Of a stretch of 64,000 nucleotides of DNA, positions 3,352-42,860 are shown in pieces; within the stretch, counting starts at the first letter, position 1, and each line of letters starts with the position of its first letter. The notes below the pieces were generated by a model. The model had not been told where the DNA came from, searched no databases, and was given only the letters and a program-made list of their open reading frames with translations. The translations under genes and the position numbers were made by a program. Origin of the DNA: Chloroflexota bacterium (GTDB taxonomy: Bacteria; Chloroflexota; Limnocylindria; QHBO01). The stretch is from contig JACDEL010000004.1 of assembly GCA_013816405.1 (NCBI GenBank), forward strand, positions 3,475-67,474, given 5' to 3'.

Positions 3352-3676
3352 ATGGCGATCGCCGCCCGATCGGCAAGAGCGAGGTCAAGCATCGGCCGCT
3401 CGGATCGTCTCGACCGCGTACAGCGGCCATTTGCCCGGAACTCCCTTCAGCTCGTGGATTCCGCGGTCATCGAGCGTGAAATCTGTGTCGGTGAGCGCAC
3501 GACGCAGTCCCGCCGCAGGCCGGTCGAAGGTGGCGAAGAACCCATCCCCCGCGGGTATTCACCTCTCGACCGCCATGTCGAGCGAGCTCGTGTCGAACAG
3601 CGGCACGGAAGCGCGCAAGCAGCGCCTGCCATCGTGCATCCCCAAGCTCGACGATCGCATTGGTGGGAGCAACTGA

Positions 3677-17255: not shown

Positions 17256-18035
17256 ATGGACGCACTCAGCCTGGCGGGCAAGGTGGCCGTTGTCACCGGC
17301 GGCACCTCCGGGATCGGGCGTGAGATCTGCCTGCGATTCGCGCGGGCCGGGGCGCAGGTGGTCGCGGCCGGGCGGCGGAACGATGCGGGCAAGTCGGTCG
17401 TTGCGGAGATCGAGGCGAGCGGGGGATCGGCGCGCTTCGTCGAGACAGATGTGACCGACCCTGGGCAGGTGGCCCGGTTGATCGGCTCGGCTGAGGAGGA
17501 CTACGGGCAGGTCAGCGTCCTGGTTTCGGCGGCAGGCGTCATGTTGATCGGCTCGGCTCCCGAAACATCGGTGGACGCGTGGCGGACGACGATCGAGACC
17601 GACCTGTCGGGTCCCTTCTACCTGGCGAAGTACGGCATTCCGGCGCTGCTGCGGGCGGGTGGCGGGACGATGGTCGTCGTCGCCTCGGAGCTCGGGCTGG
17701 TGGGAGCTCGGGAGGCGGCTGCGTACTGTGCCGCCAAGGGTGGGCTCGTGAACATGGTGCGAGCGCTGGCGGTCGACCACGCGCCGCAGGGCGTCCGGAT
17801 CAACTGCCTGTGCCCGGGACCCATCGATACCCCGTTGCTGCAGGGATGGTTTGCCGCTGGGGCGGATCCATCGGATCGGGAGCGCCAGCAGGTCGCGCCG
17901 GTGCCGCTGGGGCGGCTGGGCCGCGTGGAGGAGATCGCCGAGGCCGCGCTGTTCCTGGCCTCGGACGCGAGCTCGTACTTCGCCGGGTCGATCGTGGTGG
18001 CCGATGGGGGAGCGACCGCCTGGTACGGCCTCTAG
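17256..18035 (+). CDS. SDR-family oxidoreductase
   Basis: GKVAVVTGGTSGIGREI (TGxxxGIG), NAAG motif and catalytic YxxxK (YCAAKGG). Confidence 0.8.
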   Translation: MDALSLAGKVAVVTGGTSGIGREICLRFARAGAQVVAAGRRNDAGKSVVAEIEASGGSARFVETDVTDPGQVARLIGSAEEDYGQVSVLVSAAGVMLIGSAPETSVDAWRTTIETDLSGPFYLAKYGIPALLRAGGGTMVVVASELGLVGAREAAAYCAAKGGLVNMVRALAVDHAPQGVRINCLCPGPIDTPLLQGWFAAGADPSDRERQQVAPVPLGRLGRVEEIAEAALFLASDASSYFAGSIVVADGGATAWYGL

Positions 18036-18712
18036 GACTCGGCCTTCAGGTGGGGGATGAGGCGATCCATGGTCGGGAAGACGAGCGCGGCGCCCGCGGC
18101 GCGGAGCTGATCCGGGCTCATCGCTGAGCCGGCGGTGATGCCGATGGCCACCATGCCGGCGGCCTCCGCCGCGACCATGTCCCAGGTGGAGTCGCCGACC
18201 GCCCAGCATTCCGCGGAATGCACCTCGAGCGCGCCGGCGGCGGCCAGCAGCAGGTCGGGGTGAGGCTTCGCCAGCTTGACCCTGGTGCCATCGGCGATGA
18301 GCGGCGGTTCGTTGCGATGCAGGGCCGCGACCGATCTGCCGACCTGCTCGCGACGGCTTGACGTGGCAATCGCCCAGGGAAGCTTCCGCTCGTCCAGCGC
18401 GTCGAGGAAAGCGGTGACGCCGGGGAGGAGCTGGGGGTCGAGATTGAGCCTGGAGTAGATGGCGCCGGAGCGGGCGTCGATCCGTTCGGCGCCATCGTCG
18501 TCGAGCTGCGCGCCCGCCGTGTCAGACACGATCCGGGCCAGCTGGCGTCCGTCTGAGCCGATCAGCTCGGCGACGATTGATCGATCGGCAGGGATACCCT
18601 CTTCCTCGAAGGTTTGCAGCCAGGCGTCGATGCGCGTCTTGACCGTGTCCACCAGCGTGCCGTCGAGGTCGAGCACGACGCCCTTTGGCTCGGGAAAGTG
18701 CGCGGTCGTCAC
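18032..18712 (-). CDS. HAD-family hydrolase (HAD-IA phosphatase-like)
   Basis: VVLDLDGTLVDT motif I. ..WAIATSS.. and a terminal GDSTWDM..AGM motif IV. ATGA overlap with the LLM gene. Confidence 0.75.
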   Translation of the reverse strand: MTTAHFPEPKGVVLDLDGTLVDTVKTRIDAWLQTFEEEGIPADRSIVAELIGSDGRQLARIVSDTAGAQLDDDGAERIDARSGAIYSRLNLDPQLLPGVTAFLDALDERKLPWAIATSSRREQVGRSVAALHRNEPPLIADGTRVKLAKPHPDLLLAAAGALEVHSAECWAVGDSTWDMVAAEAAGMVAIGITAGSAMSPDQLRAAGAALVFPTMDRLIPHLKAES

Positions 18713-19593
18713 GAGAGATGGGCCCCGGCCGCGACCGCGTCGTCCCGGAAGCTGTCGAGGACGGCGAGGTCGGTTGCGGAGGCATGGATCTGCGCGATGA
18801 CGCGCGAGACGCCGAGTTCTCGATACGCGGCCAGGCGCCGAGTTCGTATCGGGCCCTCGTCGTCGATCACCGGTCCCCAGAGATGGACCGAGATCCGCAG
18901 GGAGTCGGGGTCACGGCCGATCTCGTCGCATCGGTCCCTGACGAGGGGGATTGCCCTGGCGACCTCCTCCGGGGTCAGGCCGTCGAGGTTCAGCTCATCG
19001 GCGTGGCGAGCGGCAAGCCGGAAGGTGACTGACGGTCCGTTGCCACCGACCACGATCGGGATGCGGGGCTTTTGAAGTCCCGCCGGCACGTTGATGGCAT
19101 CGGTGACCAGGCGGTGCTTGCCCGCGAACGTGGCGTGCGTCCCGGAGAACATCCGGGCGACGATCTCGAGCGTGTCGCCAAGGATGGCGAGCCGTTCCCG
19201 GGTCGGCGGGAAGTCGTAGCCGAACGCGAGGTACTCGTCTTCCTTCCACCCGGCCCCCAGCCCCAGCTCCATCCTGCCGTCGGTGACCACGTCCAGGGTG
19301 GAGGCCATCTTGGCCACCAGGGCTGGGTTTCGATACCCGGCTCCCAGCACGAGGTGACCCAGGCGGACTCGCTCCGTCCAGGCGCCCAGGGCGGCGAGCA
19401 GGGTGAAGGCCTCGAAGGTGATCTCGTCCTCGGGGGTCGGGTCGGTCTGGAAGTGGTCGTACAGCCAGATCGACTCGAAGCCGAGCTCCTCCGCGTGACG
19501 GGCCACTTCGATCGAGCGACGCCAGGCCGCCGAGGGGTCCCATCCGTCGTACTCGTGGTCGACACCCTGCGGGACGATGACGCCGAGCTTCAT
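18709..19593 (-). CDS. LLM-class (luciferase-like) F420-dependent oxidoreductase
   Basis: 294 aa from MKLGVIVPQ. ..LGFESIWLYDHF.. and ..MELGLGAGW.. are typical of TIGR03560-type LLM proteins. Confidence 0.7.
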   Translation of the reverse strand: MKLGVIVPQGVDHEYDGWDPSAAWRRSIEVARHAEELGFESIWLYDHFQTDPTPEDEITFEAFTLLAALGAWTERVRLGHLVLGAGYRNPALVAKMASTLDVVTDGRMELGLGAGWKEDEYLAFGYDFPPTRERLAILGDTLEIVARMFSGTHATFAGKHRLVTDAINVPAGLQKPRIPIVVGGNGPSVTFRLAARHADELNLDGLTPEEVARAIPLVRDRCDEIGRDPDSLRISVHLWGPVIDDEGPIRTRRLAAYRELGVSRVIAQIHASATDLAVLDSFRDDAVAAGAHLS

Positions 19594-19654
19594 GCGCCCG
19601 GTTGATACCACGCCGCGCGCCGAATGCCGAGCCCTGTGACCAGTTTCGTGACAA

Positions 19655-20449
19655 GTGTCTACTTGTTGTCCCAAGTATCCTCAGCCGATGCTGCGCGGTG
19701 AGGTACCAGCCACATTGCGCAACGATTTTTCGCCCTCCTCACTCCCGATTCACGAGGTGATTCAGCGCACGCTGCGGCGCCGAATCGAGGACGGCGAGCT
19801 CACCGAGGGACGCCAGCTGCCATCCGAGGCTGCCCTCCAGCGCGAGTTCCAGGCCAGCAGAACGCCAGTTCGGCAGGCGCTGCGCAGGCTGCAGACCGAC
19901 GGGCTCATCATCCGGGCGCAGGGGAAGGGCTCATTCGTCGCCTCCGCCAAGATCGGGGTCGCACTGCGACAGATGGTGAGCTTCGGCAATGAGCTTCGGC
20001 GGCAGGGCCACGCCGTCGAGGCGCGCACCCTGAGTGTCGAGTGGGCGCTCGCGCCGACGGAGGTGGCCCGCTCGCTGGGGCTCGCCGACGACCACGCGAC
20101 GCACCTTCGTCGCCTCCTGGTCGTGGATCAGGTCCCTCTCACGTTCTTCGAGCACTGGATCGCGCCCACCATCGCGCATTCCGTCTTCGAGGCCGCCGGT
20201 GACTTTCCCTCGCTCTACGAGCTGCTCACCCACCACGGGCGTGAGCCCTGGTACGGAACGGAGACGATCGGTGCCTCGGTCGCCAACGAGGAGATGGCGG
20301 AGCTCCTCGACTACCCGCAGGGCGGCCCGCTGGTCACCATGGTTCGCTTCACGCGCGACTTCGAGCGCCTGCCCATCGAGTACACGACCTACTCCGTGCG
20401 GGCCGATCGCTACGCCTACGAGATCAACCTGATGCGGCAGCGTCGGTGA
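19655..20449 (+). CDS. GntR/HutC-family transcriptional regulator (HTH + UTRA domain)
   Basis: ..LPSEAALQREFQASRTPVRQALRRLQTDGLIIRAQGKGSFVA.. is the GntR HTH. C-terminal UTRA-like domain. Start could be a later Met or GTG. Confidence 0.75.
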   Translation: MSTCCPKYPQPMLRGEVPATLRNDFSPSSLPIHEVIQRTLRRRIEDGELTEGRQLPSEAALQREFQASRTPVRQALRRLQTDGLIIRAQGKGSFVASAKIGVALRQMVSFGNELRRQGHAVEARTLSVEWALAPTEVARSLGLADDHATHLRRLLVVDQVPLTFFEHWIAPTIAHSVFEAAGDFPSLYELLTHHGREPWYGTETIGASVANEEMAELLDYPQGGPLVTMVRFTRDFERLPIEYTTYSVRADRYAYEINLMRQRR

Positions 20450-20453
20450 CCCG

Positions 20454-21581
20454 ATGAGCGACACGAACCTCGAGCTGCTGGCACAGGACCTCCGGCGCCA
20501 GAGGGACGTGCTCGCCGCGGGGATCTCGAGGTCGCGGGGTCGGGTGCGGGACCTTGCCGGGGAGATCGGCCGGCCGAGTCGCATCTACATCGTGGGCTGT
20601 GGTGACTCGCTGAACGTGGGCATGGCGGTCCGCTTCGAATGGGAGCGGGTGATGGGACTGCCCGTGCATGCCATCCCGGCGCTGACCTTCTCGCGCTTCG
20701 AGGCATCGAACCTCCCCGCCGATGCGCTGGTGATCGCGCTGTCGCAGTCAGGCACGGTGGTGCGCGTCATCGAGGCGGCACGCGCGAGCTTCTCGCGCGG
20801 TGTGGGGACGATCACCGCGTCAGCCTCCGGGACCAGCCCACTGGCCGCCGAGCCGGCCACCGCAACCCTCATCACCGACTTCCCGAAGCTCGGATTCGTG
20901 CCGGGCACGACCTCCTTCCCCTACCACCTGGCGGTCTTCTACGAGCTGGGGCTGGCGCTCGCCGAGCGATGGGGGACGGAGGCGGACACCGGCGCCGGAC
21001 GCGCGAACCTCGATCGGCTTCCGGACCTGGTGGAGGCATCCCTCGAGCCGATGTGGGCGACCGCCCGCGACCAGGCGGCAACGATCACACGCGACAGGCC
21101 GTTCCTGGTGCTCGGCACCGGGCCGAACTTCGCGAGCGTGCTGTTCGTGGCCCGCAAGCTCTTTGAGGTGCCGCAGGTCGCCGGCCTGGCCCAGGAGACC
21201 GAGGAGTACGCCCACGACGAGTACTCCGTGGTGACCCCCCAGGTGCCTTCCATGATCATCGCGCCGCACGACGCGGCGGCGAAGCGAAGCAGCGAGATCC
21301 TCGACTCGCTGCTGAACATCGGCTCACCCACGGCGGTGGTTGCCGAACGCGGACACGTGCCATCCAGGCCCGCCACGTGGACGTATGAGATGGAGCCCGG
21401 CCTGGACGAGCTGTACACCCCGCTCCTGGCCACGCTGCCCGGGCAGCTGCTGACCTACGAGCTGGGGCGTGCGATCGGCGGTTCCTTCTACGCCACTGAC
21501 GATCCGATCCATCGACGAGACGGCGACGACCTCATCTACCGCAGCGAGCTCGTCGCCACCAGCCCAGCAACGAAGGAGTAG
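20454..21581 (+). CDS. Two-domain SIS (sugar isomerase) protein, FrlB/AgaS/GlmS-C-like putative sugar-phosphate deglycase or isomerase
   Basis: ..RIYIVGCGDSLNVGMA..VIALSQSGTVVRVIEAA.. is the SIS signature twice. 4 bp downstream of the regulator gene. Confidence 0.7.
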   Translation: MSDTNLELLAQDLRRQRDVLAAGISRSRGRVRDLAGEIGRPSRIYIVGCGDSLNVGMAVRFEWERVMGLPVHAIPALTFSRFEASNLPADALVIALSQSGTVVRVIEAARASFSRGVGTITASASGTSPLAAEPATATLITDFPKLGFVPGTTSFPYHLAVFYELGLALAERWGTEADTGAGRANLDRLPDLVEASLEPMWATARDQAATITRDRPFLVLGTGPNFASVLFVARKLFEVPQVAGLAQETEEYAHDEYSVVTPQVPSMIIAPHDAAAKRSSEILDSLLNIGSPTAVVAERGHVPSRPATWTYEMEPGLDELYTPLLATLPGQLLTYELGRAIGGSFYATDDPIHRRDGDDLIYRSELVATSPATKE

Positions 21582-21583
21582 CA

Positions 21584-23107
21584 ATGGTCCGGTTCAGAGT
21601 CATCGTCGCCCTCGTCGTCGCGTCTGTCCTGGTGGCCGCCTGCGGAACCTCGCCGACATCGCCCGGCAGCTCCCCCGCGGGCTCCGAGGCCCCGCAGATC
21701 CCGGAGGCCCCGCAGCAATTCCAGGACCTCATCGCGGCGACCAAGCCGGCGGACAAGCAGTACGACGGCGTCGAGGTCAGCGTGGTGGTCGACTCGATCC
21801 AGAGCGGCTACCCATGGTTCTGGCTCGCGCCGGCGATCGAGAAGGCCTACAACATCAAGATCAAGGTCATCGCCACCCCATTCGAGACCTTCTACCAGGC
21901 GATCCAGAACGACATCGTGTCGGGGACCGGCGCCTACGACATCCTGAGCTACCCGCCCCGCTTCCTCGGCGACCTGGCGTCGGCCGGGAACATCCTCGAT
22001 CTCACGGACTACGCAGCGAAGTGGGACCCCGAGATGGGCGACGTCTATCCCGTCTACCAGCTCTACACCCAGTTCGACGACAAGCTCTTCGCCCTGCCGA
22101 TCGACGGCGATCGGCTCGAGCTCTACTACCGCAAGGACCTGTTTAGCAACGCCGATGAGCAGGCGGTCTTCGAGGCCCAGTACGGCTATCCGCTGGCCGC
22201 CCCCGAGACGTGGGACCAGTACCTCGACGTCGCCAAGTTCTTCAAGCGCGATGCCGGCGCGACACTGGCCGGCGAGACTCTCGCCGATCCGTTCTCGGGC
22301 ATCGCCGAGATCACCAAGCTGCCGGACAACTTCGACTGGTTCCTGAACCGCTTCGCCAGCCACGACGGCATCTACTTCGACGACCAGATGCACCCCCAGC
22401 TCGACACCGATGCCGGCCGGAGCGCGCTCCAAAACTTCGTGGACGCCGTGAAGTACGGCCCCTCGGACATCCTGAACTTCGAGTACGTCGAGTCCTTCGA
22501 TGCGTTCGTGCAGGGCCAGACGGCCATGTGCATCCAGTGGACCGACGTGGCCAAGATCGCCGAGGACCCGAACACCAGCAAGATCGTGGGCAAGACCGGC
22601 TACGCGCAGGTCCCCGGGGTTGAGCAGCCCGATGGCTCAATCGTCCATCGGTCGACGCTGGCCTACAACCGGGTCAACTCGATCAGCAAGCTGGCCAAGA
22701 ACCCGGAGGCGGCGTATCGGGTCATGCAGTTCATGAACCAGCCCGATGTCAGCCTGCTGTACGTGACCGAGCCGAGCGCCGGCATGGATCCGTACCGCAA
22801 GTCGCACTACGCAGATCCGACCAAGTGGGTCCAGCAGTGGCCAGAGCTGTCGGCCTACATCGACAACAACAAGCAGAGCCTCACCAACGGCTACCCCGAG
22901 CTCACGATGCCCGGTGCGAACCGCTACAACGAGGCGCTGGGAACCCACATCGCCCAGGCACTGGCCGGCCAGGAGTCGGTCTCAGAGGCGCTCAAGAACG
23001 CGACCACGGAGTGGGAGTCGATCACCGACGAGCTGGGTCGCGACGCACAGATCACCCACTGGCTTGCCCAGTTGAAGGGGTGGGAGGAGGTCGGGCTCAT
23101 CGACTGA
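21584..23107 (+). CDS. ABC transporter substrate-binding lipoprotein (family-1 extracellular solute-binding protein, sugar type)
   Basis: Signal peptide plus lipobox (VAACGTSP). 507 aa. Followed by two sugar-type permease genes. Confidence 0.8.
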   Translation: MVRFRVIVALVVASVLVAACGTSPTSPGSSPAGSEAPQIPEAPQQFQDLIAATKPADKQYDGVEVSVVVDSIQSGYPWFWLAPAIEKAYNIKIKVIATPFETFYQAIQNDIVSGTGAYDILSYPPRFLGDLASAGNILDLTDYAAKWDPEMGDVYPVYQLYTQFDDKLFALPIDGDRLELYYRKDLFSNADEQAVFEAQYGYPLAAPETWDQYLDVAKFFKRDAGATLAGETLADPFSGIAEITKLPDNFDWFLNRFASHDGIYFDDQMHPQLDTDAGRSALQNFVDAVKYGPSDILNFEYVESFDAFVQGQTAMCIQWTDVAKIAEDPNTSKIVGKTGYAQVPGVEQPDGSIVHRSTLAYNRVNSISKLAKNPEAAYRVMQFMNQPDVSLLYVTEPSAGMDPYRKSHYADPTKWVQQWPELSAYIDNNKQSLTNGYPELTMPGANRYNEALGTHIAQALAGQESVSEALKNATTEWESITDELGRDAQITHWLAQLKGWEEVGLID

Positions 23108-23120
23108 GCGCGCCCCTTCC

Positions 23121-24014
23121 ATGGAACGCGTGACCGGAGCGAGGACCATTGAGTCACGGCGCGTGCCGTGGCTCATGGTTCTGCCGGCCCTGCTGCTCGT
23201 CCTTGCCATCAACATCATTCCGCTGGTCTACAGCACGGTCCTCGCCTTCTTCCAGTGGAACCTGACCCAGGCCCAGGTCGCGCCCAGGTTCGTTGGCCTG
23301 GACAACTTCATCCGCCTCCTGACCCGGGACCCCCAATTCCTGACCGCGGCCGTCAACACGGCCATCCTGGTGGTGGCGACCGTCGTGATCCAGACGGTGC
23401 TTGGCGTGGCGGTCGCCCTCCTGCTCGACCAGAAGCTGAGGTTCACCGGCGTCGCCACGACCCTGCTCCTCGTCCCCCTGGCGCTCGCGCCGGCCGTGGT
23501 GGGCCTCCTGTTCAGCAGCCTCCTGAGCGGGAGCCTGGGTCCGATCAACTACTGGCTGGAGGCGATCGGCCTGCCGGCGCCATCGTGGCTCGGCGATGCC
23601 CATTGGGCGCTTCCGAGCATCGTCCTGGTGGACACGTGGCAGTGGACCCCGTTCATGATCCTGCTCACCCTGGCGGGGCTGCGATCGCTCTCGCAGGAGC
23701 CGGTCGAGGCGGCGCTGGTGGACGGCGCCAGCAGCTGGCAGCGCTTTCGGTACGTGAAGCTGCCGATGCTGCTGCCGGTCCTGACGGTGGCTGTGCTGCT
23801 GCGTGCCATCGACAGCTTCAAGACGTTCGACCTGGTCTTCCTGCTGACCTTTGGCGGGCCGGGCACCTCCTCGACCACCCTGAGCTTCTACGGCTACAAG
23901 GTCGGCCTGCAGGCCTTTGACATCGGCCGCGCGTCGGCCATCGCGTTCCTGATGGTGCAGGTCTTCATCGTGTTCGTGGTCATCTTCTACTCGCGGGCGA
24001 AGGACCAGCTGTGA
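23121..24014 (+). CDS. Sugar ABC transporter permease (MalF/UgpA type)
   Basis: 6 TM with the EAA loop (..ALVDGASSWQRFRYVKLPMLLP..). Confidence 0.85.
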   Translation: MERVTGARTIESRRVPWLMVLPALLLVLAINIIPLVYSTVLAFFQWNLTQAQVAPRFVGLDNFIRLLTRDPQFLTAAVNTAILVVATVVIQTVLGVAVALLLDQKLRFTGVATTLLLVPLALAPAVVGLLFSSLLSGSLGPINYWLEAIGLPAPSWLGDAHWALPSIVLVDTWQWTPFMILLTLAGLRSLSQEPVEAALVDGASSWQRFRYVKLPMLLPVLTVAVLLRAIDSFKTFDLVFLLTFGGPGTSSTTLSFYGYKVGLQAFDIGRASAIAFLMVQVFIVFVVIFYSRAKDQL

Positions 24015-24859
24015 GGCCGAATCCAGTCGTCCGCGCGCTCCAGTACATCGGCCTCTTCGTTGTCGTGGCCGTCTTCACCTTCCCCACCTTCTGGATGGTG
24101 CTTGGCGTCTTCAAGCGCAACGTCGAGCACAAGGCACGGCCTCCCGTGCTGTTTCCGCAGGATCCCTTCGGCGCGGCGGCGGACACGATCCGCTTCGCGT
24201 TCGAGAGCTCGCCGGTGCCGCTGGGCCACGTCTTCCTGAACAGCGTCGTGGTTGCCTCGGCGACCGCGATCGTCACGCTGGCGGTGGGCGTGACCGCCGC
24301 CTACTCCTTCGCCCGATTCCGAACCGGCGGAACGAGCCTGCCGTTCTTCATCCTCACGCTGCGCATGGCCCCGCCGATCGCCGTGGGCCTGCCGTTCTTC
24401 CTCGTCTTCCGGCAGCTGGGGCTGCTCGACAGCCAGCTCGGCCTGGTGGTCGCCTACACCACCTTCAACCTGCCGCTGGTGATCTGGCTGCTGCGCAGCT
24501 TCTTCCGTGAGCTCGATCCGTCCATGGAGGAGGCCGCCCTCGTGGACGGCGCCTCGCGCTGGCAGGCGCTCCGTTACATCGCCCTGCCGCTGGCCCTGCC
24601 GGCCATCGCCAGCACCGGGCTCCTCGCCTTCATCTTCAGCTGGAACGAGTTCTTCTTCGCGACGCTGCTCACGTCGAGCGAGGGACGGACGATTCCGGCT
24701 CTGCTGCCGCTCTTCCTGCCACGCTCGATCTCGGCGGGGCAGCCGCTGGGTGCCTCGTTCTTCATCGCCGCGATCAGCGCCGTGCCGATGATCATCCTGG
24801 TCCTGTTCCTGCAGCGCTACCTCATCAAGGGCCTCTCACTGGGGGCCGCCAAGGAGTGA
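24011..24859 (+). CDS. Sugar ABC transporter permease (MalG/UgpE type)
   Basis: EAALVDGASRWQALRYIALPLALPA is the EAA motif. 4-bp overlap with the previous gene. Confidence 0.85.
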   Translation: MRPNPVVRALQYIGLFVVVAVFTFPTFWMVLGVFKRNVEHKARPPVLFPQDPFGAAADTIRFAFESSPVPLGHVFLNSVVVASATAIVTLAVGVTAAYSFARFRTGGTSLPFFILTLRMAPPIAVGLPFFLVFRQLGLLDSQLGLVVAYTTFNLPLVIWLLRSFFRELDPSMEEAALVDGASRWQALRYIALPLALPAIASTGLLAFIFSWNEFFFATLLTSSEGRTIPALLPLFLPRSISAGQPLGASFFIAAISAVPMIILVLFLQRYLIKGLSLGAAKE

Positions 24860-24863
24860 AGAT

Positions 24864-26243
24864 TTGAAGGCTCCGTACGCTTTCTACCTGGCCGAGGATC
24901 CGGACAACACCATCCTCGACAGCGCCATCGCCTCGGTCCGCTTCGCCGCCAGGGTCTGCGACGACCCGGGCGACGGCACGCTGCGCTGCCAGAGCATGGA
25001 CGCCATCCCGGACGGCACCCTGGTCGCCTTCCGCGAGCGGATGATCGACGGGGTTGGCTACTGCACCGATTCGGTCTTCGCCGCGAACCAGCTCATCCGC
25101 CTTGGGCGCCTGCTCGACAGCCCGGGCATGATCCGCTTCGGCGAGCGGCTGGCGGAGCACGCCTTCAACGGGGGCTTCTTCGACGACGCGAAGCTGCCGG
25201 TTCGGCTGTACCTGGTCCTTGGCAGCAACCAGTTCCTGGACAATCTGGAGGGCCACCAGACATACATCGAGCCCGGCCATATGGCGCGTGTGGGGCACCA
25301 GCTGCTGATGCTCAGTGACGTCGTCAACGACGAGATGGCATCGCGGGCGCGGGAGGCGGGAGCGCGGATCGCGATGTGGGCGACGACCCTGGAGCGCTGT
25401 GCCAACGGCTGGTTCCCGCGCCGCTCGACGCCAGAAGGGCGTGCCTTTCCGAACGCGGCCGATGCCTTCGGCCCGGTCAGCCTGGGAGCGCCCCTGCCAC
25501 AGGACCCGATCCACGACCGCAGCGGGAGCGGGGTGCTGATCCTGCAGCTCCTGGTCGAGGCGCATGCGCGCGGGCTGGGGGACTTCAGCGCCGCCATCTC
25601 CGACACCATCGGCGCCTTCATCGAGGCCGGTGGCCACTTCGGGAGCACCAACAGCGACACCGAGGATTTGCAGGAGAACGTGACCTACGCGATGGCGTTC
25701 CAGGCCCTGCACGCCGCCGGCAAGCTGTTCGATCGCCAGGACTGGGTCGACTTCGCGTACACCGATTGCCTCGAGCCGCTGGTGCGCTTCGAGCTGGTCG
25801 AGGACCTCAACGGGCTCGCCACGAAGGGGCTGCTGTACATGGAGGACTCGTGGAACGCGGCCTGCACCTGGGAGATCGCCGAGGCCGCCCAGGCGTACCT
25901 GGTGGCCTTCGGAGACCGCGGCAGGCGGCCTGACCTGCACAAGGCGCTGACGATGCTGCGCGGCCTGGCCAAGCATCATCACGGGCCGCACGGCTTCCTG
26001 ACCGAGGCTGTCGACTGGGACGGCCACTCAGTCGTGACGCGCCACATGGACGGCCTGCGCTACTCGGACATCGTGACGACGCACCCGTTCCTGAATAACC
26101 TCCACGTCGTGGAGCCGACGGTCACCTTCCTCGAGCGGTTTGCGGTCCGCTCCGCCGTGGACGGTGTCGAGGCCTACTACGACCCGGAGGGCAACCGGCT
26201 GGGCCCCACTCGCCTGGAGGGAGCCGATTGGCTGCCGAGCTAG
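24864..26243 (+). CDS. Hypothetical 459-aa cytoplasmic protein inside the sugar operon (fold not confidently assigned; possibly an alpha/alpha-barrel glycosidase or epimerase-like enzyme)
   Basis: TTG start 7 nt after AAGGAG. No recognisable catalytic motif. Sits between the permease and kinase genes and is co-directional with them. Confidence 0.5.
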   Translation: MKAPYAFYLAEDPDNTILDSAIASVRFAARVCDDPGDGTLRCQSMDAIPDGTLVAFRERMIDGVGYCTDSVFAANQLIRLGRLLDSPGMIRFGERLAEHAFNGGFFDDAKLPVRLYLVLGSNQFLDNLEGHQTYIEPGHMARVGHQLLMLSDVVNDEMASRAREAGARIAMWATTLERCANGWFPRRSTPEGRAFPNAADAFGPVSLGAPLPQDPIHDRSGSGVLILQLLVEAHARGLGDFSAAISDTIGAFIEAGGHFGSTNSDTEDLQENVTYAMAFQALHAAGKLFDRQDWVDFAYTDCLEPLVRFELVEDLNGLATKGLLYMEDSWNAACTWEIAEAAQAYLVAFGDRGRRPDLHKALTMLRGLAKHHHGPHGFLTEAVDWDGHSVVTRHMDGLRYSDIVTTHPFLNNLHVVEPTVTFLERFAVRSAVDGVEAYYDPEGNRLGPTRLEGADWLPS

Positions 26244-27160
26244 TGGCCTTCGGCGACATCAGCATGGATGTCGCCGTGGAGATCCCCCGGCTTCCCGGGC
26301 CCGATGAGAAGCTGTGGGTCGAGATCGTCGGTGAGTACCCCGGCGGCATGGGGGCCAACGCGGCAGCCGCCTTCGCGGCACTGGGCGGCCGGGCCGCACT
26401 GGTGGCATCGGTCGGCGATGACGAGCGGGGGACGAGGGCGCTGGCGGAGCTGACCGAGCGGGGCGTGGACCTGGCGGGCGTTGCGCACCTCGACGCGGCG
26501 ACCTTCTGGACGCTGGCCCTGCTTGCGGAACGCGGCGAGAAGAGCCTGCTCCAATTCGCCACGCCGGCGTTGCGGGTGCCGTGGGCATCGGTCGACTGGT
26601 CCATCCTCGACGGTGCCATGTTCGCGCACACCATCGCCGACGAGGGCGACGGCAACCTGCGTCTCATCGCCGAGGCACGGCAGCGGGGGGTCATGGTCTC
26701 GGTGGACATCGAACCGGTCACGCTGGAAGCGGAGATGCGCGATCAGCTGCTACGGGGTGCGCAGGTCGTCTTCACCACCCCCGCCGCGCTGCAGTCGCTC
26801 GGTGCACCACGCGGGCCAGAGGTCGGAGCGGCCTGGCTGATCGAGCGTGGGCCGCGGATCGTCGTCGTCACGCTCGGCCACGACGGGTGCTTCGTTGCTA
26901 CCTCCTCCGCGGAGGCCGCCCAAATCGCCGGCATTGATGTCGAGGCGCGCGACACGACCGGCGCGGGGGATTGCTTCGCGGGCGCATTTCTCTGGGCACT
27001 GAGCCGGCGACGCAGCGCGCTGGAGGCGGGCCGCCTCGCCAACAGCATGGCGGCCCTGAGCACGAGCGCGCTCGGATCGCGAGGCAACCTGGTGGGGCTG
27101 GCCGAGCTTGCGGGTCGCCAGGAGCTGGCCGGGCTGGGCGTGGAGGGCTGGGGAGGGTGA
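26228..27160 (+). CDS. PfkB-family carbohydrate kinase (ribokinase/fructoselysine-kinase-like)
   Basis: C-terminal DTTGAGDCFAGAFLWAL is the PfkB signature 2. ..GGMGANAAAA.. is the N-terminal GG motif. Confidence 0.8.
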   Translation: MAAELVAFGDISMDVAVEIPRLPGPDEKLWVEIVGEYPGGMGANAAAAFAALGGRAALVASVGDDERGTRALAELTERGVDLAGVAHLDAATFWTLALLAERGEKSLLQFATPALRVPWASVDWSILDGAMFAHTIADEGDGNLRLIAEARQRGVMVSVDIEPVTLEAEMRDQLLRGAQVVFTTPAALQSLGAPRGPEVGAAWLIERGPRIVVVTLGHDGCFVATSSAEAAQIAGIDVEARDTTGAGDCFAGAFLWALSRRRSALEAGRLANSMAALSTSALGSRGNLVGLAELAGRQELAGLGVEGWGG

Positions 27161-27168
27161 ACGACTTG

Positions 27169-28221
27169 ATGCTGCGCGAGATGCAGTCGCAGCCGGCGGA
27201 TCTCGCGGCCGCGCTGGTCGACCTGCGAACCCAGGTCACTGGGCTCGATCTCGGCCGCCCCCAGAAGGTGGTCCTGACCGGGAGCGGGGACTCCGGCTTT
27301 GCGGCGATGGCGGTGGAGTATGCGTTCACGCAGGCGCTGGGGCGTCCCGTCTGGGCGCTGCCCTCGGCATCGGCCGCCCGCTACGGGCAGGGTCGCATCG
27401 ACGGGCTGACAGTCGTCATCTCGGTGAGCGGAGAGGTGCGACGCACGATCGAGGCGGCGATGGCGGCACGCAATGCCGGCGGTCGCGTCGTCGCCCTGAC
27501 GGCAGGCGCGGCCTCGTCGCTGGCGAAGCTCGCTGACGCGGTGCTGCTCATGCCCGAGCCGATCAGCCGCTCGACGCCGCACACCCGCGACTACACGATG
27601 ACCCTGCTCGCCCTGCTCGCCCTGCTCGAGAGGCTCTCCGGGACGCCGATTCCCGAGCTCGACGCGTGGCCGGAGCAGATCGGCGACCTCCTGCCGGCAT
27701 CCCTCGCCTGGGCCGACCGGCTCGCCGAGGCCTTTGCATCGGTCGATGAGCCGGTCTGGTTCCTGGGCATGGGCCCGGAGCGCGGCACGGCGGCGTATGG
27801 CGCGCTGAAGTTCTGGGAAGCCGGCGGCAGCGCGGCCTGGTGGGACGACCTCGAGGAGTTCGGCCACGGCTCGCAGCTCGCCGCCAGACCCGGCCAGCTC
27901 GCCGTCTTGTTCGCGAGCGGGCCGGCGTGGGGCCGGGCGCACGAGATGCGCGACGGCCTGGAGCGGATGGGCCTGTCGCCGGCGGTGGTGGGGGACCGCG
28001 CCCCGGAGGACTCGCAGTGCCTCGCGCTGCCGGAGATTCGAGCCGAGCTGAGCCCGCTGCTCACCTCGATTCCAACCCAGGCGCTCGCCCATGCCTTTGC
28101 CACGCGGCGCGGGATCGAGGTCGAGCTGCCGATGGGCGGCAACTCGCTGGGGGACCTCTACGACGAGGTGCACCGCGACTGGATGCGACGCTCCGCGCTC
28201 GAGCCGATCCCGCGGGAGTAG
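27169..28221 (+). CDS. Second SIS-domain protein (two SIS domains)
   Basis: ..KVVLTGSGDSGFAAMA..VVISVSGEV.. and a second SIS half. GGAGGG RBS then ATG 27169. Confidence 0.7.
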   Translation: MLREMQSQPADLAAALVDLRTQVTGLDLGRPQKVVLTGSGDSGFAAMAVEYAFTQALGRPVWALPSASAARYGQGRIDGLTVVISVSGEVRRTIEAAMAARNAGGRVVALTAGAASSLAKLADAVLLMPEPISRSTPHTRDYTMTLLALLALLERLSGTPIPELDAWPEQIGDLLPASLAWADRLAEAFASVDEPVWFLGMGPERGTAAYGALKFWEAGGSAAWWDDLEEFGHGSQLAARPGQLAVLFASGPAWGRAHEMRDGLERMGLSPAVVGDRAPEDSQCLALPEIRAELSPLLTSIPTQALAHAFATRRGIEVELPMGGNSLGDLYDEVHRDWMRRSALEPIPRE

Positions 28222-28223
28222 CC

Positions 28224-29051
28224 ATGAACCTCCCGCTCGGCGTCGCGACGGCCACGGCCGCCGCCATCTCCTTCGGTGCGGCCGATTTCTCCGGGGCAGT
28301 GGTGTCGCGCCGGGTCACGCCGCTCTCGGCGGCGCTCTCGGTGCAGGTCATCAGCGCTGCCGTCCTGGCCGCCGTCCTGGTGGTCACCTCGCAGGAGATC
28401 CGGCCATCCGCGGTGGGGATCGGCCTCGTCGCCGGCCTGGGCGTGGCAGTGGGGCTGCTTGCCCTGTACCAGGCCCTCGCCGTCGGTGCCATGGGCGTCG
28501 TCGCCGTGCTCACCGGCGTGGTCGCCTCGGCGCTGACGCTGGGCTACGACACGCTCGTGGCGGGGCAGGCGCCGTCGATCGTGCAGGTCGGCGGGATGGC
28601 CTTCGCGATCGCAGGAGCGGCGCTGAGCAGCCGCCTCGGGACCGTCTCGATGCGCGTCGCGGCGCTCTCGCTGGTGGGTGGCTGCGGGTTCGGCGGATCG
28701 TTCATCGCCTTCAACCTGGCGTCGGGAGAGAGCCCCGTCACCGTCCTGTTCGTGGCCCGGCTGGCGGCGATCGTCCTGCTCGGCGGCGCATGGGCGACGC
28801 AGTCCGGCCGACGATTGACGATGCACCCGTTGATCACGGTCGCCGGCGTGCTCGACACGGCGGCCAACCTGCTGATGCTGGTGGCGGTCACCCTCATTCC
28901 GGTGAGCTTGGCGACCGCCATCTCATCGGCCAATCCGCCGATCATCACCATGTTCCTGGCGCGCTTCGTGCTCGGCGAGGGCCTTCCCCGGTCGGCCTAT
29001 CTGTCGGTCGGGCTCGCCTCGGCCGGGATCGCCCTGATGTTCCTTGGCTGA
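28224..29051 (+). CDS. EamA/DMT-superfamily transporter (10 TM)
   Basis: 275 aa from MNLPLGV. Two EamA-like 5-TM halves. Confidence 0.7.
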   Translation: MNLPLGVATATAAAISFGAADFSGAVVSRRVTPLSAALSVQVISAAVLAAVLVVTSQEIRPSAVGIGLVAGLGVAVGLLALYQALAVGAMGVVAVLTGVVASALTLGYDTLVAGQAPSIVQVGGMAFAIAGAALSSRLGTVSMRVAALSLVGGCGFGGSFIAFNLASGESPVTVLFVARLAAIVLLGGAWATQSGRRLTMHPLITVAGVLDTAANLLMLVAVTLIPVSLATAISSANPPIITMFLARFVLGEGLPRSAYLSVGLASAGIALMFLG

Positions 29052-30511
29052 TCGGCTGCGACCAGGGCGTGGATCACCTCGCGCGTGTCGAGGTACGCCT
29101 GGCGGTAGAGGTCGAAGAGCCGGGCGTACATCGGCCCCAGTTCGCGGTTTGGCTCGATCGTCTTCTCGACCGGGTTCCAGCTCTCCAGCCCACTGATGCC
29201 TGCTGCCCCTGCCGCGAGCATCGCGTCGCCGAAGGCCGCACCGACCGTGTGACGAGGCAGCAGCTGGGGAATGCCACTCACGTCGCTCACGATCTGCGGC
29301 CAGATCGTCGTTCGGGCGCCGCCGCCCACCGCCAGGTAGCGGGTGGCGGGCGCGCTGACCTCGTCGAAGGCGTCGAGGTTGTGGCGCACGCCCAGGGCAA
29401 CCCCCTCGAGCATCGCACGCATCATCTCGGCCCGGCCGTGTGACAGGGTCAGGCCGATGAGCAAGCCCCGCGCATGCGGATCGAAGATCGGAGTCCGCTC
29501 GCCGGCGAGGTAGGGAAGCATGAGCAGTCCATCCGCTCCAGGCGTGACCTTCGCCGCTTCGGCAATGAGCGTCTCGAGCGGCTGACCCGCCACTTTGCCG
29601 AACCACGTGGCCACGATGCCGCCGGTCGCCATCCCCGCCGCCAGGGTCTCGGTTCCCTCATGGACGCCCGCTGTCGCCCACAGCTTTGTGGATCTGGCGC
29701 CGCGTTCCACGACCTTGGTCAGGAACATCGTTGAGCCGTACATCAGCATGATGTCGCCCATTTCAGTCGCGCCGATGCTCACGGCCTCCGCCCAGGCATC
29801 GATCGTGCCGGCCAGCACCGGCGTTCCCCTCTCGAGCCCTGTTGTTTCCGCCGCAGAGGCCGTTACGGCACCCGCCACCTCTGACGACCACAGCAGGCGC
29901 GGCAGCTCGATCCCCGGAGCGACGCGCTCGACCATCTCCTCGCTCCAGCGGTTGGCCGGCAGGTCGTAGAGTGGGTTGCACTGGCTGGCGGAGTGGTGGT
30001 CCAGCATGTACTCGCCGGTGAGCTGCCAGACCGCGTACGAGCTCGGCATGAAGAAGCGTCGCGTGCGAGCCCAGACCTCTGGCTCGTGGCGCTGGAGCCA
30101 GAGGATCTTGGGACCCACCGCCTGTGAGCTGAGCAGCGACCCGCCGCGTACCAGCAGCTCGTCGTCGCCGATCTCCGCGCTGAGCTCGGCGATCTCCGCC
30201 TCAGCGCGGCTGTCAATGCCATAGAGGATCGCCGCCCTCACCGGCTCGCCTGCGGCGGTCGCTGGCGCCAGGCACGGTCCCATGCCGCTGACGCATACCG
30301 CAGCCGGCGATTCGCCCAGCTGCGTCACCACCCGGCGGCTGAGCGAGGCCATCTCGGACCACCAGGTCGCGGGATGGTGCTCGGCCCACCCGATCCGGGG
30401 CCGGGAGATCTCGTGCGAAACCTGCTCGGTGGCGCGGATCTCGCCGCTCTCGTCCACTGCAACTGCCTTGGACGACGCGGTGCCGATGTCGATGCCGAGG
30501 ACGTATGACAT
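28997..30511 (-). CDS. FGGY-family carbohydrate kinase (L-fuculokinase/xylulokinase-like)
   Basis: 504 aa from MSYVLGIDIGTASSKAV (FGGY N-terminal motif). ..GGGARTTIW.. is the C-terminal ATP motif. Confidence 0.8.
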   Translation of the reverse strand: MSYVLGIDIGTASSKAVAVDESGEIRATEQVSHEISRPRIGWAEHHPATWWSEMASLSRRVVTQLGESPAAVCVSGMGPCLAPATAAGEPVRAAILYGIDSRAEAEIAELSAEIGDDELLVRGGSLLSSQAVGPKILWLQRHEPEVWARTRRFFMPSSYAVWQLTGEYMLDHHSASQCNPLYDLPANRWSEEMVERVAPGIELPRLLWSSEVAGAVTASAAETTGLERGTPVLAGTIDAWAEAVSIGATEMGDIMLMYGSTMFLTKVVERGARSTKLWATAGVHEGTETLAAGMATGGIVATWFGKVAGQPLETLIAEAAKVTPGADGLLMLPYLAGERTPIFDPHARGLLIGLTLSHGRAEMMRAMLEGVALGVRHNLDAFDEVSAPATRYLAVGGGARTTIWPQIVSDVSGIPQLLPRHTVGAAFGDAMLAAGAAGISGLESWNPVEKTIEPNRELGPMYARLFDLYRQAYLDTREVIHALVAADQPRNIRAIPAEASPTDR

Positions 30512-30519
30512 CGGGCGGC

Positions 30520-32298
30520 TCAGCCGTACAGGGGCCCGAACGCGTCGCAGGCGCGGAAGTCGGCACCCTCGGCATCGGCCGTTCCGAATCCGTTCCAGGC
30601 TGCCGGTCGAAAGACCTGGTCGGCGTCGACGTTGTGCATGAAGACCGGCACCCGAAGGATGGACGCCAGGGTGATGAGATCGGCGCCGATGTGGCCGTGA
30701 CTGATCGCGGCATGGTTGGCGCCCCAGGCATTCATGACCGAGTAGACGTCCCGGAAGACGCCGTCTCCCTCCGTGCGGGGCACGAACCAGGTCGTGGGCC
30801 ACGAGGGATTGGTGCGGTCGTCCAGGACCGCATGCACCTCGTCAGGCAGCTCGATCGTCCATCCCTCGGCGATCTGCAGCGCCGGACGGCCGCGGTATAT
30901 GTTGATGCGGCACATGGTCACCGGCATCCCGCCGCGCGTCCGGAAGCGCGTCGACCAGCCACCGCCGCGGAAGTACTCGGTCAGCCCCGGGTGCCACGTC
31001 GTGGCGCGCAGGCTTGCGGCGATCTCGTCCTCGGAGAGCTCCCAGAACGGCTTGATCGCGGCCCGGCCGTCGATCGTCTGCTGCCCGGTCGCATCGAGCG
31101 CCGCGGGCCCGGAGTTGATCAGGTGCAGGAATCCACCGGCCTCGACCCCGCCGAGCTCATGTCCCGCGACCCGTTTCACGGCCTCCGGGCTCCAGTAGGT
31201 CCGAACGTCGGCAAAGATCTGCGCCGTGTTGGTGAGCAGGTGGCCGAACAGCATCGAGGCGCCGTTCAGGGAGTCGTTCTCGGTGGCGACCACGTACGGC
31301 GCGCGAGGCCCGTCCCAGTCGAACGACGAGTTGAGGATCGCCTCCATGAAGTCGCCGTTGGGCAGGAAATCGGTCCATTGGCGCTGCCCCTGGAAGCCGG
31401 CCAGGATCGCGTTGTGGCCGAGCGACTCCTCGCCGTGCCCGGCCTCCTTCAGCTTCGGATTGCCGACCATCAGGTCCCGCATCGCCAGCGCCATCTTCAC
31501 CGATGAGGCCCAGTCGCGATCCAGCTCCTCCCGGGAGCGTTGTTTCTCGGCGCGGTTGTAGTCGGTCCCCTCCACACAGTTCACGCGCACCCACTCCATC
31601 GCCCGCTCGAACTCCGCGGGGTCATAGATGCCACGCTCGATCCTGCGCAGGATCTCCGTCATGTCGATCGCCTCGACGCGCATCCCCAGGTAACGCTGGA
31701 AGAAGGCGCGATCCACGATCGAGCCCGCGATTCCCATCGAGGTGCCACCCACCGACAGGTAGGATCGGCTCCGCATCAGCTGCGATGCGACCGCCGCCTT
31801 CGCGAAGCGCAGCACCTTCTCGCGAATGTCGTCAGGCACGGACACGTCACCGCTGTCCTGCACGTCGCGCCCGTAGATGCCGAACGCGGGCAGGCCCTGC
31901 TGGGCGTGGGCTGCCAGGACAGCCGCCAGGTAGACGGCCCCGGGCCGCTCGGTCCCGTTGAATCCCCACACCGCCTTGGGCCGCAGCGGATCGACGTCCA
32001 TCGTCTCAGAGCCGTAGCACCAGGCCGGCGTCACCGAGATCGTGGCTCCCACGTCCTCCCGCCGAAACTTCTCATCGGCTGCGGCCGCCTCTGCCACCCG
32101 ACCGATGGTGGAATCGGCGATGACGCACTCCACGCGCTCGCCGTTGGGGTACCGCAGCGCGCCGGAGATCGTGTCTGCCAGCGCTCGAGCGAGCTGGATC
32201 GTCTGCGCCTCGAGCGATTCGCGGACTCCGCCCTCGCGTGCATCGATCGTCGGCCGGATCCCGATCCGGGGGAGGACGCCAAATCGGTCCGCAGTCAT
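30520..32298 (-). CDS. fucI: L-fucose isomerase
   Basis: 592 aa from [16 protein letters not shown]. Long colinear matches to E. coli FucI: ..[56 protein letters not shown].. and ..[36 protein letters not shown].. and ..[35 protein letters not shown]. Confidence 0.85.
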
Positions 32299-32486
32299 CG
32301 GTCTTGCTCCTCGCACGGGCGGCGGATGAGGCGGCGCCGCCGCCGCGGGATGGCAAGTATCAGCCGAGGGTTGCATCCCGTGGCCCTTTCGCGGCCTTCG
32401 GAGGGACCTCCTCCAAATTTGATGACAACACAGACTGGCTTGTACTCACCGGCCTGCCCCTGCAACGGACGGCCGAAATGGTCCAA

Positions 32487-41963: not shown

Positions 41964-42860
41964 CTACTCGATCTTGTCGAGCGTGGCCGGATCGAGGTTG
42001 TACTTCTCCGCGATGGTCGTCAGCTTGCCATCCGCCTTCAGCGCGCGAAGAGCAGCCGCGATGGCGTCACCGATGTCGTCATGTGCTTTCTGGCGGTAGA
42101 CGCCGTAGGTCTTGTCCTGGGAGGCGACGAACGCAACCTCGTACTTGTCGGCGTTGCGGGTCATCCAGTCGGCAACCGCCTCCTGGGTCTCCCAGATGGC
42201 GACCGCGCGGCCAAGGACGATCTGCTGGAACTCATCGGCGACCTTTGCGTAGCCCTGAATCTCGATCGCCGGATTGCCGGCGTCCGTGCAGTCCTTGCTT
42301 GCCTGGGCCGAGACCGTCTCGACCAGGCCGCCGGTCTGGATCGCAACGGTCTTGCCGCACAGGTCGGCGGCTGTCTTGATGCCCTCGGGGTTGCCCTTGA
42401 CCACCATCACGACGTGGCCGGTGGCCATGTACGGCGTCGCGTCGGCGACGGCGATGCGCTCATCCGAGATGAAGAGGCCGGACCACACGATGTCGCAGCG
42501 TCCCGCAGTGAGGTCAGGAATGAGCGCGTCGAAGCCGGTGTTGCGGATCGTGATGGTGAGGCCGAGCTTGTCGGCGACCGCCTTGGCGGCATCGACGTCA
42601 AAGCCGATCGCAAGGTTCGGATCGGTCACGTCGGATGTCTCGAAGTATTCGAGCGGGGGATATTCGATGTCGACGCAGTCGACCAGCTGCCCGGCCGTGA
42701 TCAGGCTGGTGGGCGCCGGGATGACGGAGGCCGATGCCGCAGCGCTCGCGCTGGCCGCCGCCTGGCTCGGGCTCGCCGAGGAGCTCCCCGCCTGCTGGCA
42801 CGCGGCCAACATCAAGGCTACGATTGCCACGGCTAGGAACGAAGTTCTGCGGACGATCAC
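41964..42860 (-). CDS. Amino-acid ABC transporter substrate-binding lipoprotein
   Basis: Signal peptide plus lipobox (LAACQQ). Family-3 SBP size and pattern. Confidence 0.75.
   Translation of the reverse strand: MIVRRTSFLAVAIVALMLAACQQAGSSSASPSQAAASASAAASASVIPAPTSLITAGQLVDCVDIEYPPLEYFETSDVTDPNLAIGFDVDAAKAVADKLGLTITIRNTGFDALIPDLTAGRCDIVWSGLFISDERIAVADATPYMATGHVVMVVKGNPEGIKTAADLCGKTVAIQTGGLVETVSAQASKDCTDAGNPAIEIQGYAKVADEFQQIVLGRAVAIWETQEAVADWMTRNADKYEVAFVASQDKTYGVYRQKAHDDIGDAIAAALRALKADGKLTTIAEKYNLDPATLDKIE

Follow-up and report, generated by a model that had tools for sequence, protein, structure and literature searches.

Organization of the nine-gene operon

We analyzed a window of 64,000 nucleotides (nt) from a Chloroflexota bacterium (Limnocylindria; QHBO01), corresponding to positions 3,475–67,474 of contig JACDEL010000004.1 in assembly GCA_013816405.1; the window denotes this whole stretch of DNA, and coordinates given without a locus label refer to it. 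Within the window, which has a GC content of about 68%, nine tightly packed open reading frames (ORFs) on the + strand (19688–29051), defined from the ORF listing together with Pfam and NCBIfam profiles, form an operon-like cluster that parallels the fructosamine (frl) operons and includes a gene for a 459-amino-acid (aa) protein of an unannotated family.

The cluster opens with a GntR/HutC regulator carrying a UTRA effector domain (19688–20449; Pfam GntR 1.3e-19, UTRA 8.3e-23), followed by SIS-A, a 375-aa protein of the two-SIS-domain isomerase/deglycase type (20454–21581; Pfam SIS, and the GlmS isomerase domain at 2.6e-16 in the PDB). The importer is encoded by genes for a CUT1-type solute-binding lipoprotein (21584–23107; Pfam SBP_bac_1, 1.1e-26), a UgpA/MalF/GlcT-like ATP-binding cassette (ABC) permease (23121–24014; BPD_transp_1, 4e-18) and a second, MalG/GlcU-like permease (24011–24859; BPD_transp_1, 1.7e-22). 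Among PDB entries, the sorbitol-binding protein 4RYA and trehalose/maltose-binding proteins are nearest to the lipoprotein. The 459-aa protein (24864–26243), a PfkB-family sugar kinase (26228–27160; Pfam PfkB, 4.2e-36), SIS-B, a paralogue of SIS-A (27157–28221; Pfam SIS, 6.2e-16), and an EamA/DMT-family membrane transporter (28224–29051; Pfam EamA, 1.1e-13, in two stretches) complete the set. Neighboring genes are separated by gaps of at most 13 nt or overlap by 4–16 nt, as is typical of operons, and Shine-Dalgarno-like motifs precede most of the starts. Three starts were revised, namely those of the regulator (ATG at 19688, probable), SIS-B (GTG at 27157, overlapping the PfkB stop) and EamA (ATG at 28224). 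No ABC ATPase gene lies within the operon, and a promoter and terminator scan gave no signal exceeding background.

A first-pass annotation had listed the same nine genes between 19655 and 29051; all of them were recovered on the + strand, and Pfam supports every family assignment except that of the 459-aa ORF. The parallel that it drew with B. subtilis frlR/frlBONMD in gene classes and order likewise stands, as does its description of the 459-aa ORF as being of unknown family.

The 459-aa protein is predicted to be an (alpha/alpha)6 barrel

Searches with the 459-aa protein of Pfam, NCBIfam and the PDB (phmmer and profile search), as well as tblastn against plasmids, returned no matches. A protein with 93% identity is encoded in a metagenome-assembled genome (MAG) of Candidatus Limnocylindria (Chloroflexota), and 253 homologues (E ≤ 1e-3) were found in a collection of 5.8 billion proteins; the best 120 of the 253 all lack a Pfam domain, and those with a name are called hypothetical. 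The family is small and sharply delimited, since an exhaustive profile search of 1.84 billion representatives yielded only 210 clusters at 50% identity, most of them fragments. In GTDB genomes, 369 homologous loci were found.

AlphaFold2 modeling from a 36-sequence alignment produced a model of twelve helices (pLDDT 94.2, pTM 0.94). The top Foldseek matches in the PDB are cellobiose 2-epimerases (E 8e-9, 12–17% identity; TM 0.59 on the query and 0.68 on the target, within an overall range of 0.59–0.69), and glucose 2-epimerase, GlcNAc 2-epimerase, mannose isomerase and sulfoquinovose isomerase occupy the next ranks. Nearly all of the top 28 matches belong to the AGE superfamily, with a putative exported protein (7TEM) also included, and the barrels of glycoside hydrolase (GH) families GH88, GH105, GH76 and GH47 rank below the AGE-superfamily enzymes. 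The 459-aa protein, hereafter the barrel protein, is thus predicted to be an (alpha/alpha)6 barrel that is AGE-like at the level of the fold.

Sequence comparison gives much less. PF07221 does not match the window protein and matches 4 of 36 relatives weakly (best 9.5e-4), a PDB profile search with the barrel family found no AGE chain, and tblastn of YihS against the analyzed loci gave chance-level matches only. Similarity to AGE enzymes is detectable at the level of a hairpin (hhalign E 4e-4). Alignment of the family with YihS by hhalign reaches a probability of 0.3%; with a 20-sequence sulfoquinovose-isomerase profile it reaches 34%, placing residues 254–370 on YihS 90–206 out of register, so the AGE catalytic Arg/His/His/Glu set could not be located in the barrel. 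Across 36 homologues, 44 columns are invariant; in the model they fall in the six loops before the putative inner helices, with many Asp, Glu, Trp, Asn, His and Arg residues among them. On this structural basis, the barrel could be an epimerase or isomerase, or a hydrolase.

Conservation of the module and separability of the barrel

Barrel relatives at 49% identity or more, found in Limnocylindria, Acidimicrobiales, Ca. Aldehydirespirator and other Actinomycetota, are accompanied by orthologues of SIS-A, the PfkB kinase and SIS-B and by an ABC importer. In locus L095 the order is GntR/UTRA regulator (of the same type as in the window), SBP_bac_5 binding protein, ATPase, two permeases, a 163-aa protein, SIS-A, PfkB, SIS-B, barrel and EamA, and loci L001, L100, L086 and L088 are similar in content. 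The nine-gene set is not a chance arrangement, its content being repeated in a different order in these distant genomes. The module is conserved by content, not by order, across Chloroflexota and Actinomycetota; the first-pass annotation had proposed checking whether the arrangement is conserved in other genomes, and this holds for the genes themselves, whose order differs in Actinomycetota. Literature searches found no published description of this cluster or of the barrel family.

The actinobacterial binding proteins (SBP_bac_5) cluster with NikA, DppA and AgaA, and the importers there are of the peptide/opine type. A fructose-6-phosphate-aldolase-like gene is present in five loci, identified directly in L001 and L017 and by sequence clustering in L011, L012 and L016. 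The EamA genes of the window, L095 (11802–12557), L001 (15174–15998) and L100 (17437–18366) match each other in BLASTP at E values of 1e-5 or worse, and as these module-attached genes are barely similar, the EamA family seems to have been recruited independently in three lineages. The EamA family includes exporters of amino acids and metabolites.

Each actinobacterial locus examined encodes, along with the module, a conserved protein of about 165 aa (L095:6443–6934, L010:5247–5774, L094:4732–5766, L086:11409–11936, L001:16125–17105) that matches nothing in Pfam or the PDB and is absent from the window. It is tandem-duplicated or fused in L001, L100 and L016. A GNAT-like assignment made by eye was dropped, having no Pfam or PDB support.

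The barrel and the core trio of SIS-A, kinase and SIS-B also occur apart. Locus L098 (8643–15258) encodes SIS-A (51% identity), PfkB (47%) and SIS-B (49%) together with an ADI-like gene and an SBP_bac_3 protein, and locus L099 (10001–15330) combines a 46% identical SIS-A orthologue with a DDAH/ADI gene, an amino-acid-type ABC system and an FrlD-like kinase (35% identical to E. coli FrlD, E 4e-37), the only such kinase seen beside a SIS-A orthologue. Neither locus has the barrel. DDAH/ADI genes recur in L098 and L100. The DDAH/ADI enzymes, the SBP_bac_3 importers and the FrlD-like kinase of L099 hint at a glycated arginine-type substrate for L098 and L099. The barrel in turn stands alone, without the trio, in L087 and L096. 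Being missing from loci with orthologues of SIS-A, kinase and SIS-B (L098) or of SIS-A (L099), the barrel is an accessory that the core pathway does not require. The first-pass annotation had proposed the 459-aa protein as a likely undescribed catabolic step and had named absence of the ORF from homologous loci as one way to refute its reading; the absence from L098 and L099 tells in part against that reading. Where the barrel accompanies the SIS/kinase core, the importer was always CUT1 or SBP_bac_5, types that take larger ligands; the SBP_bac_3 loci lack the barrel.

In other phyla the barrel has a different setting. Members of a clade at about 40% identity lie among glycoside hydrolases, and in 23 Planctomycetota loci the barrel is fused C-terminally to GH172 (DUF2961) in a single ORF of about 1100 aa, which is then always followed by a GH116-like gene (for example L034:7859–11266 and L034:11304–14363, respectively; also L048, L042 and L078). 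Fusion partners other than GH172 have no Pfam match. Exo-alpha- and exo-beta-D-arabinofuranosidase activities are known from the combination of GH172 and GH116, and alpha-D-fructofuranosidases likewise fall within GH172. The barrel adjoins GH1 in Ca. Caldisaccharidevorator, and in Maribellus it is surrounded by GH78, GH106, GH123 and GH127-like genes.

SIS-A, SIS-B and the kinase lie outside characterized equivalogs

SIS-A has a single Pfam SIS match; SIS-B has a SIS match and, in the same N-terminal part, a weak sub-threshold SIS_2 match. Alignment with the two-SIS isomerase domain of GlmS covers almost the whole of each protein, and neither contains a glutaminase domain detectable by Pfam. 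The two proteins share 28–29% identity, and both keep the catalytic Glu-X15-His pair: E238/H254 of SIS-A and E221/H237 of SIS-B align with E224/H240 of FrlB and E488/H504 of GlmS. Common to FrlB and GlmS, the pair does not discriminate between them. The phosphate loop reads SQSGTVVR in SIS-A and SVSGEVRR in SIS-B (both SxSGxVxR) as against SxSGxTx(E/D) in FrlB and GlmS; Thr352 and Asp354 of GlmS correspond to Val and Arg, and the loop conserved in FrlB, S91-x-S93-G94-x-T96-x-E98, is not matched.

Profile scores were compared with the equivalog cut-offs for FrlB (NF008481, 430 bits), GlmS (418), NagB-II (430), AgaS (529) and FrlD (NF007321, 247). SIS-A scores 80.8 bits against GlmS, 45.5 against NagB-II and 35.6 against FrlB; SIS-B scores 54.5 against GlmS, 41.3 against NagB-II and 19.7 against AgaS, and does not match NF008481. 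The best PDB sequence match of SIS-A is GlmS. For SIS-B, 7KQA (a SIS-fold chain deposited as 'FecR') comes first, the SIS-type glucosamine-6-phosphate (GlcN-6-P) deaminases 1J5X and 8EOL third and fourth, and GlmS sixth. The SIS-A family consists of about 57 close relatives, beyond which the next matches are full-length GlmS proteins at 24–29% identity. In a bootstrapped neighbor-joining tree, SIS-A and SIS-B form sister clades (support 90) apart from GlmS, E. coli FrlB and AgaS. They are thus each other's closest paralogues in this sequence tree, and their deeper placement is uncertain. The FrlB-like label given earlier to the SIS proteins is borne out by the catalytic pair and fails at the level of orthology, in view of the scores and the Val/Arg loop. 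The competing possibility that they would cluster with GlmS or AgaS finds GlmS as the best profile but the proteins themselves in a clade of their own.

The PfkB kinase scores 118 bits with the ribokinase profile and 53.8 bits with that of FrlD, both below cut-off. Its BLASTP identities are 29% with YihV and 23% with E. coli FrlD, and a PDB search matches it to sulfofructose kinase 7AG6 at 1.4e-17; its earlier description as FrlD-like is not upheld. Judged from their sequences, none of SIS-A, SIS-B and the kinase is a member of a characterized equivalog.

A relative of SIS-A with the same SxSGxVxR loop (29% identity) is encoded on plasmid pMHb of Mesorhizobium huakuii (L097:8231–16740), in a cluster of UTRA regulator, carbohydrate kinase, SIS protein, BtpA and BMP-type ABC importer located beside Rieske, ferredoxin reductase and desaturase genes. 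This cultured rhizobium may offer an experimentally tractable SIS-A relative.

Flanking genes and candidate operator

Upstream of the operon, and divergent from it, lie genes on the - strand for an F420-dependent luciferase-like (LLM) oxidoreductase (18709–19593; TIGR03560 at 236.9 bits, above the cut-off of 231.4) and a HAD-superfamily phosphatase of the beta-phosphoglucomutase/sugar-phosphatase type (18032–18712; TIGR02009 at 100.7 bits, below cut-off). The HAD gene, which shares 4 nt with the end of the LLM gene, is co-transcribed with it and may be an accessory of the operon; L004 and L007, both close relatives, retain the HAD gene. Other F420-type LLM genes directly adjoin the barrel gene in L001, L010, L094 and L100.

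The divergent promoter region between the LLM and GntR genes contains a perfect 16-bp palindrome (ACAAGTGTCTACTTGT; 19651–19666), in which the half-sites ACAAGT and ACTTGT flank GTCT. It occurs once in the window against 0.09 copies expected by chance. The pattern ACAAGT-N4-ACTTGT is found at the same place in the related MAG loci L004 and L007, and this retention makes the palindrome a plausible candidate operator of the GntR/HutC regulator.

Downstream, the - strand (28997–32376) encodes a convergent pair, an L-fucose isomerase that scores above its equivalog cut-off and a xylulokinase-like FGGY kinase, the 3' end of the pair overlapping the end of the EamA gene by about 55 nt. A link of the operon to this pair, by way of D-arabinose and the GH172/GH116 activities, was considered and found unsupported, as the pair is convergent and kept only in close Limnocylindria relatives. 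Further away, a gene for an SBP_bac_3-type amino-acid binding protein (41988–42713, - strand) encodes a product about 29–31% identical to those beside the SIS-A orthologues in L098 and L099.

Proposed pathway and alternative explanations

Our leading interpretation, held tentatively, is that the operon serves the catabolism of a glycated amine (an Amadori or Heyns product) or an opine-like conjugate of sugar and amino acid, with the barrel in an accessory, pre-processing role. Three kinds of importer are attached to the SIS/kinase core: CUT1 in the window, SBP_bac_5 of the NikA/DppA/AgaA cluster, and the amino-acid-type SBP_bac_3. All three are types for which amino-acid-bearing ligands or, with CUT1 as in FrlO, Amadori compounds are known. 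A sugar-amine substrate is favored by the amino-acid-type importers, the DDAH/ADI genes, the FrlD-like kinase of L099 and the independently recruited EamA transporters, and also by the intact catalytic pair in both SIS proteins; the fructose-6-phosphate-aldolase-like genes of related loci fit a hexose-6-phosphate product. Cleavage would follow phosphorylation, in keeping with the frl, fra and gfr systems. The kind of pathway is already known, and the variant with an uncharacterized enzyme family is what is new.

The pathway may be outlined as follows, the gene families being observed and every step inferred. The CUT1 ABC importer, energized by an ATPase encoded elsewhere, would take up the conjugate. 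The barrel would then pre-process it, either by epimerization or isomerization of its sugar part, in the manner of AGE-fold enzymes, or by removal of an extra glycosyl residue; a more complex conjugate could in this way be cut back or changed to suit the core. After phosphorylation of the sugar by the PfkB kinase, SIS-A and SIS-B, perhaps as a heterodimer, would isomerize the phospho-sugar-amine by means of their Glu/His pair and release the amine together with glucose-6-phosphate or fructose-6-phosphate. EamA would export the freed amine, amino acid or aglycone. The GntR/HutC repressor would control the operon, probably by binding the palindrome, and the divergent LLM oxidoreductase and HAD phosphatase may contribute a side reaction, either redox or dephosphorylation.

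Several observations weigh against this interpretation. No component reaches the equivalog cut-off of FrlB, FrlD, GlmS, NagB-II or AgaS, and the SIS proteins rank GlmS before NagB-II and NagB-II before FrlB, all far under cut-off. Thr96 and Glu98 of FrlB are replaced by Val and Arg in both SIS proteins, and both ribokinase and sulfofructose kinase resemble the window's kinase more than FrlD does. The window contains no gene for catabolism of the released amino acid, and barrel relatives in other phyla lie among glycoside hydrolases without a link to amines.

Free amino sugars or amino-sugar disaccharides (for example mannosamine, glucosamine or chitosan-type oligomers) are alternative substrates, which we consider unlikely. 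The barrel would then be a 2-epimerase or glycosidase, PfkB an amino-sugar kinase, and the SIS proteins 6-phosphate deaminases of the NagB-II/GlmD type that form fructose-6-phosphate and ammonia. An AGE-family enzyme serves as the 2-epimerase in the Bacteroides sialic acid route, and the barrel fold resembles GlcNAc and cellobiose 2-epimerases; the best SIS profiles, GlmS, NagB-II (45 and 41 bits) and GlmD, and the PDB matches to the deaminases 8EOL and 1J5X point the same way, and the fructose-6-phosphate-aldolase-like genes fit the product. All these profile scores are, however, far under cut-off, and ammonia release alone needs neither two deaminase paralogues nor EamA. A deacetylase gene is lacking, none of the importers (peptide/opine, amino-acid and CUT1 types) is of a monosaccharide type, and the FrlD-like kinase and DDAH/ADI genes beside SIS-A orthologues are at odds with this scheme. 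A neutral glycoside or disaccharide is a further candidate, to which we assign a rather low probability: as a new glycoside hydrolase, the barrel would cleave the imported compound, the kinase and SIS proteins would simply phosphorylate and isomerize the released and possibly rare sugar, and EamA would export the aglycone. This agrees with the GH1, GH78, GH106, GH116, GH123 and GH127-like neighbors of the family in other phyla, with the GH172 fusion in 23 Planctomycetota loci, with the invariant Asp, Glu and Trp residues in loops before the inner helices, and with CUT1 importers, which are typical of di- and oligosaccharides; the barrel also keeps company with importers of larger ligands and is missing from SBP_bac_3 loci. 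Yet double-SIS enzymes of the GlmS/FrlB type with intact Glu/His are known for C–N chemistry and not for plain sugar isomerization, the core trio occurs without the barrel beside amino-acid importers, and no sequence or profile search links the barrel to any GH family.

A sulfoquinovose-type glycolysis was also considered and appears very improbable. Here a YihS-like barrel and a YihV-like PfkB kinase would precede cleavage by FSA/TAL, EamA would export the C3 sulfonate, and the Val and Arg of the SIS loop would bind sulfonate in place of phosphate. Sulfoquinovose isomerase is among the fold matches, the kinase matches 7AG6 and YihV as described above, related loci have FSA-like genes, and the phosphate loop is altered in both SIS families. 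Set against this, the window has no sulfoquinovosidase, sulfolactaldehyde reductase or dehydrogenase, or YihT-type aldolase, and no GH31/SqgA, YihT or YihU-type gene lies in or beside the operon. The hhalign match to the sulfoquinovose-isomerase profile is out of register, as noted, and the associations with DDAH/ADI, the FrlD-like kinase and amino-acid importers would go unexplained.

Returning to glycated amines, a more specific proposal, which we put forward as somewhat doubtful, is that the barrel represents a new family of carbohydrate-active enzymes (CAZymes), either a glycoside hydrolase or an AGE-type branch acting on N-substituted sugars. It would perform an undescribed first step that feeds complex glycated amines, for example disaccharide-derived Amadori products, manno epimers of Heyns products or opine-like compounds, into a core built on a new heteromeric GlmS-like SIS pair.

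Decaying biomass and soils are rich in glycated amines such as Amadori and Heyns products and opine-like compounds, and to our knowledge their bacterial catabolism is known almost only from enterics, Bacillus and Agrobacterium. The module, present in uncultured Limnocylindria and Acidimicrobiia, points to a separate SIS/kinase lineage for these compounds that is combined with three classes of importer. The locus also provides a testable context for an unannotated (alpha/alpha)6 family that is fused to GH172 in other phyla. Identifying the reaction of the barrel would annotate several hundred homologous loci and might add a CAZy family; otherwise the locus stays an ordinary operon for utilization of a sugar derivative.

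Comparison with known systems

The AGE superfamily (cellobiose 2-epimerase, N-acylglucosamine 2-epimerase, mannose isomerase, YihS) shares the (alpha/alpha)6 fold with the barrel (Foldseek E 8e-9 to 1e-5, TM at most 0.69 on the target), whereas a significant full-length sequence relationship is lacking and Asp, Glu, Trp and Asn predominate among the invariant residues of the barrel. With the GlmS isomerase domain and NagB-II, the best profile matches of both SIS proteins, the window enzymes have the two-SIS architecture and catalytic Glu/His in common; they differ in scoring 5- to 10-fold under the equivalog cut-offs, in forming a separate clade and, in relation to GlmS, in having no glutaminase domain. 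Two SIS-type enzymes per locus are also described for the gfr systems of Salmonella and Enterococcus, where GfrE and GfrF are the deglycases for glucoselysine-6-phosphate and fructoselysine-6-phosphate (PMC12675984). By analogy with that description, the two SIS enzymes of the window could serve one aldosamine and one ketosamine; uptake there is by a phosphotransferase system that phosphorylates on import, in contrast to the ABC importer and separate kinase found here.

The closest parallel in layout is with the frl operons (E. coli frlABCDR; B. subtilis frlR/frlBONMD-frlP), which share the GntR/HutC regulator with UTRA, the PfkB kinase and the order regulator, SIS, binding protein, permease, permease, kinase. 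As in B. subtilis, a CUT1 binding protein and two permeases are encoded without an ATPase in the operon (PMC12632257), and FrlB, like SIS-A and SIS-B, is a double-SIS enzyme with a Glu-X15-His catalytic pair (PMC10285752). The differences are equally clear: the SIS proteins are only 19–23% identical to FrlB and the kinase 23% to FrlD, far under the NCBIfam cut-offs, the phosphate loop is SxSGxVxR rather than SxSGxTxE, no FrlC-type (TIM-barrel) epimerase is present, and the window has two paralogous SIS genes, the added (alpha/alpha)6 barrel and EamA. Taken as an analogy, the frl comparison is a useful guide to how the locus probably works.

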